NCBI GenBank assembly: GCA_024277355.1
Contig: JAJRVL010000004.1
Coordinates: 270,001-302,000, forward strand
Direction of reading: 5' to 3'
Source of the DNA: an archaeon
GTDB lineage: Archaea > Iainarchaeota > Iainarchaeia > Iainarchaeales > 1-14-0-10-31-34
Length of the DNA: 32,000 nt
Shown here piece after piece: positions 3,264 to 6,726 of this stretch (positions are counted from its first letter, which is position 1; each line of letters starts with the position of its first letter). The notes under the pieces were generated by a model. That model was not told the origin of the DNA, ran no database searches, and saw only the letters and a program-made list of their open reading frames with translations. A program made the translations under genes and the position numbers.

Positions 3264-4313
3264 ATGGAAAAAGAAAAATTAAAGGAATTTGGAAAAAATT
3301 TTGCTTTACTTTTAATTACAGTCATTTTATTTCTTTTTTTTCTTGAATTAACTTTAAGGATTTTTCCATGGTTGTTTGGACAGCAGATACAAAATCAATT
3401 AATTACAAAATTCCATTCAGGAGAAACAGGAATATACAGTTATGATTCAAATATAGGAATGTTACTGCTAAAACCTGGAATTGAAACTGAAGTTTTCAGG
3501 AACGGGCATTACTGGATTCATAAAACAGACTCAAAAGGATTCAGAAATGAAAAAGAAATTAATCAAGCAGACATTATTCTGCTTGGAGACTCAATAATTT
3601 ACGGAACAGGACTAAACTATAAAAAAACTACAGCATACTTCCTGCAAAAAGAAACAGGATTAACAGTATTCAATTTATCAAGAGAAGGTGATTGTTCTTT
3701 TGAACAAAAATTCCTGTTAAACAAATATGCTCCTGAATTAAAACCAAAACATATTTTTTATTTTTTCTTTGAAAACGATTTATATGACTTAAAAATAAAA
3801 TTAACAAAAAAAGAAATGAATTATTTTATTCAAGAACAGTCAATTGATGATTTTTCTGTTAAAAGAAAAAAAATTACAGGAACAGAAACCGCTAATTTAT
3901 ACAAAAAGTTAGTTGAATACTCTTTTGTTGCAAGAACAATTCATATTTTAATTCACTTAAAAGAAGACCAAATAAAATTAACAAACAAAATTGCAAACAA
4001 AATCATTGACACAAACGGAATTGAATGGCAGTACACAGAAAAAGCAATAAAGCAGATGAAAAAATTCTCTGATTCAATCAATTCAGAATTCATTTTAGTT
4101 CCACTGACAAACGAAAAAAACCAGCAGGAAAAACTAAAACAAATTGCAGAAGAAAATGGAATTCCTTTAATTGAAACAGAAGAATTAATTGGTTATAATC
4201 AGATTCCTACAATAAAAAAAGAATATGCTTTGGAAAGAGACTGGCATTTAAATGAAAAAGGACATGAAAAACTTGCAGAAATTTTATTGAATTACCTTAA
4301 AAAAAATAAATAA
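3264..4313 (+). CDS. membrane-anchored SGNH/GDSL-type hydrolase
   Basis: 349 aa with an N-terminal TM helix (FALLLITVILFLFFLELTL). Block I is ILLGDSIIYGTG and the C-terminal block V-like sequence is RDWHLNEKGH (DxxH). Confidence 0.6.
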   Translation: MEKEKLKEFGKNFALLLITVILFLFFLELTLRIFPWLFGQQIQNQLITKFHSGETGIYSYDSNIGMLLLKPGIETEVFRNGHYWIHKTDSKGFRNEKEINQADIILLGDSIIYGTGLNYKKTTAYFLQKETGLTVFNLSREGDCSFEQKFLLNKYAPELKPKHIFYFFFENDLYDLKIKLTKKEMNYFIQEQSIDDFSVKRKKITGTETANLYKKLVEYSFVARTIHILIHLKEDQIKLTNKIANKIIDTNGIEWQYTEKAIKQMKKFSDSINSEFILVPLTNEKNQQEKLKQIAEENGIPLIETEELIGYNQIPTIKKEYALERDWHLNEKGHEKLAEILLNYLKKNK

Positions 4314-4357
4314 TCAATTAAGCAATTATTATTAATATAAAAGAACTTTATTTTTTT

Positions 4358-4519
4358 ATGGAAAAAAACAAGCCTTATCTAAAAGAATTATGGGATTTTC
4401 TTAAAGTCAGAAAAAAATGGTGGCTGGCTCCAATAATCATAATGCTGATTTTAGTTGGAATAATAATTATAATAGGAAACAACAGTGTCGTTTCAACTTT
4501 TGTTTATGCCTTGTTTTAG
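4358..4519 (+). CDS. DUF5989-family small membrane protein (53 aa, missed by ORF track)
   Basis: Own translation: MEKNKPYLKELWDFLKVRKKWWLAPIIIMLILVGIIIIIGNNSVVSTFVYALF*. It matches the remembered DUF5989 pattern ELW.FL..RKKWWL.PII......G........S....F.Y.LF. Ends at TAG 4517-4519. Confidence 0.75.
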   Translation: MEKNKPYLKELWDFLKVRKKWWLAPIIIMLILVGIIIIIGNNSVVSTFVYALF

Positions 4520-4675
4520 TTATTCAAGCATCACTAAAGCTAAATAAGAATTATGTTCATGTGAATCAGCAGTAGCAGAAAACTTAATATCAATTATTTT
4601 TTTATCTTTAATAAATTCATTTACAGCTTCTTCCAATAATTGATAATCATTAAACTCAAAAAGTTTTATTTTCAT
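4520..4675 (-). CDS. small hypothetical protein (51 aa, below ORF-track cutoff)
   Basis: Own translation: MKIKLFEFNDYQLLEEAVNEFIKDKKIIDIKFSATADSHEHNSYLALVMLE*. ATG at 4675, TAA at 4522-4520. Lies 54 nt downstream of tRNA-Gln on the same strand. No family recognised. Confidence 0.4.
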   Translation of the reverse strand: MKIKLFEFNDYQLLEEAVNEFIKDKKIIDIKFSATADSHEHNSYLALVMLE

Positions 4676-4729
4676 TAAAACACCCTATTAACTGAGTTTT
4701 AATTAGTATTTAAATGTTTAGAAAAATAA

Positions 4730-4802
4730 TAGCTCCGAGGAGATTCGAACTCCTGTCAACGGGTTCAAAGCCCGTCATCCTTGGCCACTAGACTACGGAG
4801 CT
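4730..4802 (-). tRNA. tRNA-Gln(UUG)
   Basis: Hand-folded cloverleaf: AGCUCCG UA GUCU AGUGGCCAA GGAU G ACGGG CUUUGAA CCCGU UGAC AGGAG UUCGAAU CUCCU CGGAGCU A. The A1:U72 pair is typical of archaeal tRNA-Gln. No encoded CCA. Confidence 0.9.
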
Positions 4803-4864
4803 AGCAAACCGTAGTCTAAATTTTGTTCAACCTTTTTTTAAAAGGTTGCTAGACTACGGAGCTA
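4788..4864 (-). repeat. 16-nt direct repeat (tRNA-Gln nt 1-15 plus the preceding U) flanking a palindrome and an antisense 9-mer
   Basis: CTAGACTACGGAGCTA occurs at 4788-4803 and at 4849-4864. Between the copies, in minus sense: CAACCUUUUAAAAAAAGGUUG (perfect hairpin) AACAAAAUUU AGACUACGG UUUGC. AGACUACGG is the exact complement of tRNA nt 5-13 (CCGUAGUCU). Confidence 0.85.
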
Positions 4865-5007
4865 TTAAATTAATTAATAAAATAAAAATAGTCTTATAAA
4901 TAATTTAATTTCAATAAGTTTAAATTGGTTTACTTAAAGTACTTTTTATTACTGTTTGTGTTTACAGTCCGGCTAAATAAAGTTAATAGCAAGTATGCAC
5001 TCAAACA

Positions 5008-5175
5008 GCAAAATATTTTCAAAAGTTTTTAGTAAAGCTTTTTTTGAAAAAGGTTTAGTTTGTGTTTGCAAAGCAAACCGTTTTTGATAAAACTTTTTTC
5101 TAAAAAGTTTGTTTTAATAAAACTTTTTCCAAAAAGGATTATGTTTTTGATAAAACTTTTTTCTAAAAAGTTTTT
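5008..5175. repeat. locus L1: cluster of A/T palindromic R units (about 31 nt), homologous in inverted orientation to 22049-22135
   Basis: Units lie at about 5034-5056, 5081-5110, 5111-5141 and 5142-5175. Consensus is TTTTTGATAAAACTTTTTTCTAAAAAGTTT, with a GTTTGC-AAA-GCAAAC hairpin at 5064-5078. The reverse complement of about 5020-5110 aligns by eye to 22049-22133 at roughly 85 percent identity. Confidence 0.8.
5142..5175 (+). promoter_or_regulatory. TTGA-box plus 10-bp perfect A/T hairpin ending 1 nt before tRNA-Ile
   Basis: Sequence TGTTTTTGATAAAACTTTTTTCTAAAAAGTTTTT|G. The stem pairs 5152-5161 with 5165-5174. TTGATAAAA is centred about 26 nt upstream of the mature 5' end, where an archaeal TATA box would sit. 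A related element precedes tRNA-Thr. Confidence 0.4.
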
Positions 5176-5249
5176 GGGAGAGTAGCTTAGTTTGGTGGAG
5201 CATTCGACTGATAATCGAAAGGTCGAGGGTTCAAATCCCTCCTTTCCCA
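5176..5249 (+). tRNA. tRNA-Ile(GAU)
   Basis: GGGAGAG UA GCUU AGUUUGGUG GAGC A UUCGA CUGAUAA UCGAA AGGUC GAGGG UUCAAAU CCCUC CUUUCCC A. All stems pair, and there is no encoded CCA. Confidence 0.92.
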
Positions 5250-5252
5250 TTT

Positions 5253-5663
5253 ATGAAAACTTTAACTAAATACATTTATTTTAATACAAAAAACAGAATT
5301 GAATTTGTTAATATTACTAATCAAATAGAAGAAATTGTTTCTGAAAGCAAAATAAAAGAAGGAATAGTTTTAGTTAATCCAATGCATATTACTGCTTCAG
5401 TTTACATTAATGACGCAGAATCAGGTTTAATTGAAGATTATAAAGAATGGTTAAAAAAATTGGTTCCAGAAAAAGATTACAAGCATAATTTAACTGGAGA
5501 AGACAATGCTTTTTCTCATTTAATGAGAACAATAATGGGAAGAGAAGTTACAATAGCAATAACTAATGGAAAACTTGATTTTGGCACCTGGGAACAAATT
5601 TATTACGCTGAATTTGACGGTCAAAGAAAAAAAAGAGTTTTAGTTAAAGTTTTAGGTGAGTAA
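5253..5663 (+). CDS. yjbQ: YjbQ/UPF0047 family protein (secondary thiamine-phosphate synthase-like)
   Basis: 136 aa with [27 protein letters not shown] and [16 protein letters not shown] motifs typical of UPF0047. The ATG is 3 nt after the tRNA-Ile discriminator base. Confidence 0.8.
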
Positions 5664-6155
5664 TTCAACTATTTTTTTTCCAAACTCTCTTGCAGCTTTT
5701 GGTCCATTTGCAGTAATAATATTTCCTGAAACTTCAATGGAATTCCCTGAAAACAAAGCTCCTTTTTCTGTTAAATTTTCTTTTTCGCTTTCAAATGAAG
5801 TAGCTTTTTTTCCTTCCAATAAACCTGCATTAGCTAAAATTGAAGGCGCAATACAAATTGCCGCAACAACTTTTTGTTTTCTGTTAAATTCTTCAGCTAA
5901 ATTCAATACAGTTTGATTGTCAAAATATTCTGCTGCACCGCTTCCGCCAACAAAAATTACTGCATTAAATTCTTCTGAATTAATTTCTTCAATTAATAAT
6001 TCTGCTTTTATTGTTCCATTTAATTTTCCTTTGCATTCCCCTTTTTCAGTTGAAGCAACAACAGTTTCAATTCCTGCTTTTTCTAATTCTTCTTTTGGAT
6101 GAAATAATTCTTCATCCCTAAAATTCTGTTTTGCAATAACAAACACAACTTTCAT
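5652..6155 (-). CDS. DJ-1/PfpI family protein
   Basis: 167 aa with the nucleophile-elbow motif [17 protein letters not shown] and the upstream FVGGSGA. Its 3' end overlaps yjbQ by 12 nt (convergent). Confidence 0.85.
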
Positions 6156-6225
6156 ATAAATCCCATATAAAAAATGAAAGAAAAAAAATAAGAATGTTTT
6201 TAAAGAAAGAGAACTTGAATTTATT

Positions 6226-6726
6226 ATGCAGGAAAAAAAAGAATCAGAATATAAAATTGTTTCAGATTACCAAAAACTAGAAAAACAAGTAGAAAAACAA
6301 ATAAGAAACGGCAACATAAAACTTCCTTTTGGGGGTTTTTATCAAACAGGTTATTTAGGGCATTCAATAAAAGCAATAGTTAAAGAAGAAAAACTTGTAA
6401 GTTTAATGGTTTATTCAATTAATGAAAAAACATGCGATATTGCATATATTTGGCATAATCCTCGTCTTGCAGTTGAATACAAAAAAACAAACAAAATATC
6501 TCCTTCAAAATTTTTATTAAAATCAATTGCTAAAAAAGGAATTACATCATTTACAACACAATATTTAACAAAAACCGGCAGAAAAATGGTATTAAAATTA
6601 ATTAAAGAAAACGTAATAATTGAAAAAGGATTGAAAAGAATAAATCCAAAACCCAAATTCAGGAAATTTCTTAACAAAATGCCAACAGAATATAAATTTA
6701 AATTAGTAAAACGACATCCCAAATAA
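6226..6726 (+). CDS. hypothetical basic protein
   Basis: 166-aa ORF filling the gap between flanking genes. No motif recognised. Confidence 0.4.
   Translation: MQEKKESEYKIVSDYQKLEKQVEKQIRNGNIKLPFGGFYQTGYLGHSIKAIVKEEKLVSLMVYSINEKTCDIAYIWHNPRLAVEYKKTNKISPSKFLLKSIAKKGITSFTTQYLTKTGRKMVLKLIKENVIIEKGLKRINPKPKFRKFLNKMPTEYKFKLVKRHPK

Follow-up and report, generated by a model that had tools for sequence, protein, structure and literature searches.

The REP/BIME, Correia and ERIC families and the Rickettsia palindromic elements are short, multi-copy, gene-less hairpins with target duplications, which are co-transcribed and tolerated if harmless. Bacterial palindromic repeats and MITEs have been reviewed (PMC10969869). 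In the tRNA-Thr locus of the archaeon Caldiarchaeum subterraneum, a 5' tRNA fragment lies upstream of the complete gene with a 1.8-kb recombinase-encoding insert between the two, and the authors saw in it the ongoing disruption of a tRNA gene (Sugahara et al., 2012, PMC3293823). Transposition of tRNA introns has been described in Thermoproteales, with similar short sequences at different tRNA genes, as the work is quoted in later papers (Fujishima et al., 2010, via PMC4033280 and PMC4090602). For Asgard tRNA introns, a 2026 preprint gives no general route of arrival (10.64898/2026.10.13.758758). The present locus relates to the open question of how introns, long leaders and splits come about in archaeal tRNA genes.

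The leader of a tRNA-Gln(UUG) gene was analysed in a 32,000-nt stretch of archaeal DNA, called the window here, to which all plain coordinates refer. As in the Caldiarchaeum tRNA-Thr, a 5' fragment, inserted mobile DNA and a complete tRNA gene follow one another, but the insert is 45 nt long and gene-less, the fragment corresponds exactly to nt 1-15, and an inverted copy is present as well. With the Thermoproteales introns, as characterised in the quoting papers, the locus shares small elements that are spread among the tRNA genes of one lineage; unlike those bulge-helix-bulge introns, it leaves the mature tRNA intact, has no such motif and carries its element in the leader. Short, multi-copy, gene-less hairpin units with flanking target duplications are also the hallmark of the bacterial repeats and MITEs, whereas the duplication here is unusually long (15-18 nt), the target is the tRNA D-loop and the target is also present as an inverted copy. 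We know of nothing comparable to these last two features among the bacterial palindromic families.

The combination of a 45-nt gene-less insert, a triplicated target and a putatively self-masking leader is absent from the nearest published cases, those of Caldiarchaeum and Thermoproteales. A literature search found no description of the direct-inverted-direct layout or of the hairpin repeat, and a layout carried by many tRNA genes of related archaea has apparently gone undescribed. What is new is this architecture, how widely it occurs across tRNA types and families, and what it means for the folding of the precursor. With about even confidence, we read the locus as a 45-nt mobile hairpin repeat inserted in tRNA-Gln(UUG), whose leader would be self-neutralised and removed by RNase P, and not as an attenuator.

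Layout of the tRNA-Gln leader

The genome that carries the window (G000; 1.13 Mb, about 27% G+C, 11 contigs, 96% complete) belongs to an archaeon (DPANN, Iainarchaeota-like), as the archaeal model gives its SSU rRNA 1403.6 bits and the bacterial model 1105.2 bits. RNase P RNA is present (111.7 bits), as is one splicing endonuclease gene of 171 codons. Long introns are found in many of the tRNA genes.

Read on the minus strand, the locus consists of a TATA-like box, an upstream copy of the tRNA 5' end that we call the decoy, a hairpin, a linker, an antisense arm, a spacer, the intact tRNA-Gln and a T-rich tract. The tRNA-Gln(UUG) itself (4730-4802; Rfam, 66.8 bits) has an A1-U72 pair, the discriminator A73 and no encoded CCA, and the ARAGORN call differs from that of Rfam by one extra base at either end. 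Transcription in archaea terminates at oligo-T tracts, and the T-rich tract TTATTTTTC directly 3' of the tRNA (4721-4729, minus strand) is likely an archaeal terminator.

The decoy (4849-4864, minus strand) is a direct duplicate of T(-1) plus tRNA-Gln nt 1-15, identical to 4803..4788, and forms the left copy of a 16-nt target duplication (-1 to 15). The insert between the two copies measures 45 nt and stands after D-loop position 15, between 15 and 16. It begins with a perfect palindrome of 21 nt (4828-4848; 9 bp and a 3-nt loop), the core of a dispersed hairpin repeat, followed on the minus strand by the A-rich linker AACAAAATT (4819-4827), which represents the ATCAAAA-type tract of the repeat family. 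The antisense arm TAGACTACGG (4809-4818, minus strand) is a 10-nt inverted copy of tRNA/decoy nt 5-14; if the linker is taken as 4827..4818, it reads AACAAAATTT and includes T4818. Between this arm and tRNA +1 lies the spacer TTTGCT (4803-4808, minus strand), whose GCT may be a remnant of an inverted copy of nt 1-3.

The decoy, hairpin and antisense segment reported in an earlier note on this DNA were thus recovered at the same positions, and they are not a product of chance. In 20000 shuffles of the 120 upstream nt, a direct match of at least 15 nt to the first 20 nt of the tRNA never appeared (the longest was 10 nt), and an inverted match of at least 10 nt appeared once. The note had described the antisense segment as a 9-mer (AGACTACGG, 4817..4809) against tRNA nt 5-13; the complementarity stands, but T4818 lengthens it to nt 14, and the segment is in fact a 10-mer and the core of an inverted target copy. 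A repeat search recovered the direct repeat of decoy and tRNA as family D4 and the hairpin as family D3. A 10-mer is also common to the antisense/spacer region and positions 5072-5081 (family D8), and given this match, part of the antisense arm and spacer may be native repeat sequence.

Known RNA classes did not account for the leader. A search of positions 3500-6500 against Rfam at a permissive threshold returned only the two tRNAs and no cis-regulatory match. A C/D-box or H/ACA guide RNA was rejected, as 4803-4864 holds no RUGAUGA/CUGA or ACA motif and no Rfam match. The attenuator in a tRNA leader that had been suggested earlier, or a leader riboswitch, was likewise abandoned: the genome is archaeal and has an RNase P RNA, and the leader contains no terminator/antiterminator pair and only U3-U4 runs.

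The candidate archaeal TATA-type promoter box TTAAATTATTTATAAG (4893-4908, minus strand) is located 30-45 nt upstream of decoy +1, and the block is conserved between G000 and the related genome G004 at equal distance from the decoy. Over 25 instances of the layout, TATA-like words peak at -35 to -31 from decoy +1. Taken together with the filled and empty sites described below, this peak argues that the old promoter stands in front of the decoy, and transcription probably starts upstream of the decoy, so that the whole leader would be transcribed. Transcription might instead begin within the insertion, as the TTTTAAAAAAA tract of the hairpin (T4A7, about 31-41 nt before +1) resembles a TATA box some 36 nt before +1. 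This tract is one basis for reading the leader as a scar at the DNA level, in which transcription would start inside the insertion with T4A7 as TATA box, decoy and antisense would never share an RNA, and their complementarity would be kept by palindrome correction or gene conversion instead of RNA function. We consider this unlikely: at promoter distance in front of the decoy there is a conserved TATA-like box, the hairpin stands anywhere from 23 to more than 100 nt before +1, and the same hairpins occur within introns and behind 3' ends, where a promoter would be senseless.

A dispersed hairpin repeat and its target duplications

On the plus strand, 4821-4848 form a repeat unit made of TTTTGNT and an A/T-run palindrome. 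In a pattern search, the palindrome (4828-4848) fitted the family form N-AAC(C)-T4-6 .. A4-6-(G)GTT-N of about 9 bp, and the ATCAAAA-type tract beside it is present as AACAAAA (4827..4821). The family has no Rfam entry. The pattern of hairpin plus linker had 104 matches in G000 in its loose form and 53 in a stricter one. The hairpin side of these copies adjoins the 5' ends of tRNAs (Val, Ile, Ser, Lys), their 3' ends (His, Asp, Ala, Leu) or the 5'-exon ends inside introns (Gly, Arg, Ser, Asn, Leu); at tRNA-Gln(UUG), it adjoins decoy nt 15. Near protein genes, it faces gene ends eight times and gene starts once, within 40 nt and by a crude ORF mapping. The tRNA-Gln hairpin is one copy of this dispersed repeat. 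The idea of the hairpin as a promoter with a start right after it was discarded on the ratio of gene ends to gene starts and on the copies in introns and behind 3' ends.

Directly upstream of tRNA-Ile(GAU) (5176-5249), positions 5022-5174 of the plus strand contain four copies of the repeat in tandem. The last of these hairpins ends 1 nt before tRNA-Ile +1, and the copy in the tRNA-Gln leader has the same plus-strand orientation. Another copy, in the opposite orientation, lies inside the RNase P RNA gene (C7:21963-21989 within C7:21768-22061), where it presumably does no harm by lengthening a peripheral helix.

Several copies outside tRNA genes lie between direct repeats (16, 15 and 12 nt), and flanking repeats of at least 10 nt were found at 6/44 copies compared to 1/44 in a displaced control. 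Two copies of G000 outside tRNA genes, C9:14443 and C3:27644, have perfect flanking direct repeats of 16 nt and 15 nt, respectively, without an inverted target copy. As family members carry flanking duplications of 15-16 nt, the 16-nt duplication at tRNA-Gln is typical of the family. The second suggestion of the earlier note, a 45-nt palindromic element with a 16-nt duplication of its target, is strongly supported by membership in the repeat family, by these duplications elsewhere and by the filled and empty sites.

The element has no clear terminal inverted repeats, and neither Cas1 nor Y1 transposase was found when both were searched for in G000. A casposon-type insertion would produce a duplication of similar length (14-15 bp), but was rejected because Cas1 (PF01867) was not found in this 96% complete genome, and mobilisation by IS200/IS605 was rejected for the lack of a Y1 transposase in it. 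An att-site duplication by an integrase was dismissed with only 45 nt and no ORF between the copies. The outer stem is not a general trait of the repeat either, as it was not enriched over the control in G000.

The junction of exon with hairpin and linker at the decoy is the same as at canonical introns of G000. This would fit a D-loop intron, with the decoy as the true exon 1 and a stretch of 61 nt, running from the hairpin to the end of the second copy, spliced out by endonuclease and ligase. Relaxed motifs are possibly accepted by the alpha4-type endonucleases of DPANN (PMC5829648), the minimum free energy structure of one construct has the decoy as acceptor strand, and the second tRNA-Gln (CUG) of G000 has a D-loop intron. 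We nevertheless consider splicing very improbable. A hand analysis of the sequence gave no bulge-helix-bulge (two 3-nt bulges, 4-bp helix) at any k = 1-17; since the two copies are identical, only a self-complementary 4-mer (AGCU or CUAG here) could form the central 4-bp helix, and it does not stand beside the right flanking helices. Moreover, a complete 73-nt tRNA always follows downstream, with its mature sequence uninterrupted, and divergence strikes the decoy (the D-stem in G008, the acceptor strand in G010) and never the downstream copy. Two genomes considered as cases of obligate introns, G142 and G164, were discounted, as the real 5' ends there lie farther downstream, beyond extra hairpins.

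The second tRNA-Gln (anticodon CUG) of G000, overlooked by ARAGORN, is located on contig C10 at about 67265-67400 of the minus strand. Its D-loop is interrupted by about 35 nt with a plausible bulge-helix-bulge motif (central helix CGGC/GUCG), and the insert appears to be a non-canonical D-loop intron with a proper motif.

Recurrence in relatives and the inverted copy

The comparison of orthologous loci that the earlier note had proposed divided the relatives. The same insertion, with its duplication, is present at the orthologous locus in G004 and G001 and absent in G002, G003 and G005. The G001 sequence upstream of the decoy aligns with the G002 sequence that adjoins the real tRNA, giving a filled and an empty site, and from this alignment it follows that the left copy, the decoy, retains the ancestral upstream DNA. 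Between G000 and G004, the leader is about 95% identical and the flanks are about 50-80% identical. Through the 15-nt direct repeats, the insertion could also be lost precisely, in keeping with its patchy occurrence within the genus. A cassette of promoter plus tRNA-Gln is inverted relative to tRNA-Ile in G002 (L007) and G003 (L005) when compared to G000, G001, G004, G005 and G010, and both genomes with the inverted cassette are also without the leader insertion.

A covariance model (R1) built from nine instances, whose alignment leans towards its own structure, matched over its full length, at E <= 1e-6, in 30 genomes from 8 families of the order, genomes that are not independent of one another. 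No match of this kind came from other orders, which the phylum sample represents by few genomes. The relatives' genomes were assembled from metagenomes and often lack tRNA loci. Twenty-five instances were read by eye, before the genes for tRNA-Gln (UUG, CUG), Asp, Glu (CUC, UUC), Tyr and Trp; ARAGORN gives wrong names to some of the genes with introns. The order is the same in all 25: nt 1-15 of the tRNA come first, followed by the hairpin, the A-rich linker and the inverted copy, and the complete tRNA begins after a spacer of 0 to about 100 nt. Two pattern searches for a duplicated D-arm alone yielded six and four places, all of which also had the hairpin and the antisense. A small repeat is thus caught entering tRNA genes at a defined position, in at least 5 tRNA types and 8 families, and annotators should be aware that an intact-looking tRNA gene may conceal an insertion.

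The decoy is 15/15 identical to the tRNA in 13/25 instances. What sets the two copies apart is decay: the decoy has lost the D-stem pairing in both G008 genes and the acceptor pairing in G010, and the downstream copy always provides a proper 5' end.

The inverted copy matches the local tRNA in 25/25 instances; it is complementary, for instance, to CCGGTAGTCT in an Asp gene, to CCCCTTAGCTTA in a Tyr gene and to CCAATAGTGCG in a Glu gene. In local alignments it extends to nt 1-2 in 16/25 instances and to nt 4-5 in the others. With an extension to nt 1-2 the stem holds a copy of the acceptor stem, a feature expected of a tRNA-minihelix mimic, in which the acceptor stem is continued by seven more pairs and RNase P could cut at +1 of both decoy and tRNA to release a selfish or functional RNA of about 60 nt that exploits tRNA processing. 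The location of family copies exactly at tRNA cut sites (5' end, 3' end and intron start) is consistent with such a mimic, as is the better conservation of hairpin and linker relative to the flanks. It is quite unlikely all the same, because the pairs opposite nt 3-4 are often broken and the spacer is anything between 0 and about 100 nt long.

In the nine-sequence alignment, the outer helix of decoy and antisense is 97.7% paired, with 5 of 10 pairs changed on both sides, and the inner hairpin is 96.3% paired, with 2 pairs changed on both sides. The compensatory changes in the hairpin of relatives affect its closing pair and its fourth pair. Counted over 27 instances on the tRNA-sense strand, the outer helix contains 230 Watson-Crick pairs, 17 G-U, 6 A-C and 16 others. 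A neutrally decaying DNA palindrome should give as many G-U as A-C, so that the excess of G-U fits an RNA helix under selection and hence a transcript with both arms. This count also weighs against the DNA-level scar. Among the 25 instances, differences between decoy and tRNA leave the antisense a better match to the decoy five times and to the tRNA three times, which does not separate the two pairings. The proposal that the antisense tracks the decoy rather than the tRNA, suggested by G008 and G010, was dropped, as 5 versus 3 is not significant.

Gene conversion is clearly active at the tRNA-Gln loci, as judged by sequence comparison. The UUG and CUG paralogues of G001 (L024/L025) and G008 (L040/L047) are identical in the 3' part of the leader and the 5' third of the tRNA and differ in their anticodon arms, which indicates conversion between paralogues. 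The leader of tRNA-Gln(CUG) in G001 contains two hairpin units. On the minus strand of the window, decoy nt 4 (4860), tRNA nt 4 (4799) and its partner nt 69 (4734) are T, T and A in G000; G004 and other relatives have C, C and G at these three sites, a coordinated change. The paralogues with identical leaders and this joint change of decoy and tRNA speak for a scar maintained at the DNA level, as do the 13/25 decoys that are still fully identical to the tRNA. The joint change also counts against the masking of the decoy in our favoured reading, for it would be unexpected if the decoy were merely harmful, unless gene conversion is frequent.

Outside tRNA genes, repeat copies show the direct duplication without an inverted copy. 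Two origins of the latter are conceivable. A single event may have made all three copies, with template switching at the palindrome as the cause of an inverted triplication. Otherwise, a plain insertion may have been followed by a short template-switch mutation that copied the target in reverse, with the inverted copy then kept by selection because an unmasked decoy would be harmful. Template-switch mutations, as Loytynoja and Goldman reportedly described in 2017, copy a nearby segment as its reverse complement and create a perfect hairpin in one event; rearrangements of the DUP-TRP/INV-DUP type, said to have been described by Carvalho and colleagues in 2011, have a middle inverted copy between two direct ones. 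Template switching or inverted triplication is a candidate origin for the inverted copy, at a scale here of 14 nt. A snap-back of a palindrome directly at tRNA +1 was rejected as a general origin, as the spacer is 0-19 nt or longer.

A wider interpretation treats the triplication of tRNA nt 1-14/16 around the hairpin, in direct, inverted and direct order, as the mark of an undescribed D-loop-targeting mechanism. It would produce a bistable leader that holds a copy of the acceptor stem and can be released by RNase P, and it could be a stepping stone to a D-arm intron or a split tRNA. We regard this as rather doubtful.

Folding of the precursor

The leader alone folds into a single long hairpin of -25.0 kcal/mol, whose base reaches position -1, and the tRNA-Gln cloverleaf has -23.0 kcal/mol. 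For leader and tRNA together, two states were compared, with energies that leave aside tRNA tertiary structure and kinetics. In state A (-51.6 kcal/mol), the decoy pairs with the antisense and the tRNA's own 5' strand is in the acceptor stem; in state B (-51.1 kcal/mol), the decoy is in the acceptor stem and the antisense is paired to the tRNA 5' strand, which leaves a gap of 0.5 kcal/mol. The claim that the antisense can pair with either the decoy or the tRNA strand therefore agrees with the co-folding energies. When the antisense was scrambled, the fold with the decoy as acceptor strand won by about 6.4 kcal/mol (-42.5/-45.2 vs -36.1/-38.8 kcal/mol). Among ten intron-less instances with an intact decoy, the difference of A minus B was between -2.1 and +4.4 kcal/mol with the antisense present, and between +1.3 and +6.4 kcal/mol in all ten without it.

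The near-equality of the conformers, here and in nine further instances within the same range of -2.1 to +4.4, could suggest a regulated folding switch, in which the antisense toggles between the decoy and the tRNA 5' strand and so sets the amount of matured precursor; the conservation of the three-part layout is in line with it. Two identical copies, however, produce this near-equality automatically, and it is no evidence of regulation. A switch is decidedly improbable, as there is no ligand pocket, terminator or conserved extra element, the decoy decays in G008 and G010 whereas the tRNA copy never does, and sister species manage without the insertion.

According to the reading that we favour, in which the leader masks itself, the upstream copy would have kept the promoter, the downstream copy would be the start of the intact tRNA, and tRNA-Gln would be transcribed with a leader of about 70 nt. 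During transcription, the antisense would pair with the decoy to form a long hairpin with the repeat at its tip. Since the decoy and the antisense precede the tRNA in the transcript and lie near each other, state A should form co-transcriptionally and be kinetically trapped. The decoy would then be masked from the 3' strand of the acceptor, the tRNA could fold, and RNase P would cut at +1 so that the hairpin leader is discarded. The earlier note had the antisense blocking the cloverleaf: that pairing is possible, but the most economical role of the antisense is the reverse, to mask the upstream decoy. The antisense would act as an antidote to the decoy, and the decoy would equally keep the antisense off the tRNA. 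Loss of either one alone should hurt, which may explain why both are retained. It counts against this reading that states A and B are nearly equal, so that correct folding depends on the assumed co-transcriptional order.

If the leader does work in this manner, the gene would survive its insertion because the duplicated 5' end, a potential misfolder, arrives with its own antidote. The locus also lends itself to clean in-vitro tests of how the structure of a leader guides RNase P and the folding of the precursor.

A second, GC-rich multi-hairpin module is common to the leaders of many tRNA genes of G000, with an example at 22442-22500 of the window, upstream of tRNA-Thr(CGU) (22370-22441) on the minus strand. 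It has the conserved block CAGCAGGACTGAA..TGAAGTCGTGCA and often ends as a hairpin 0-4 nt before +1.
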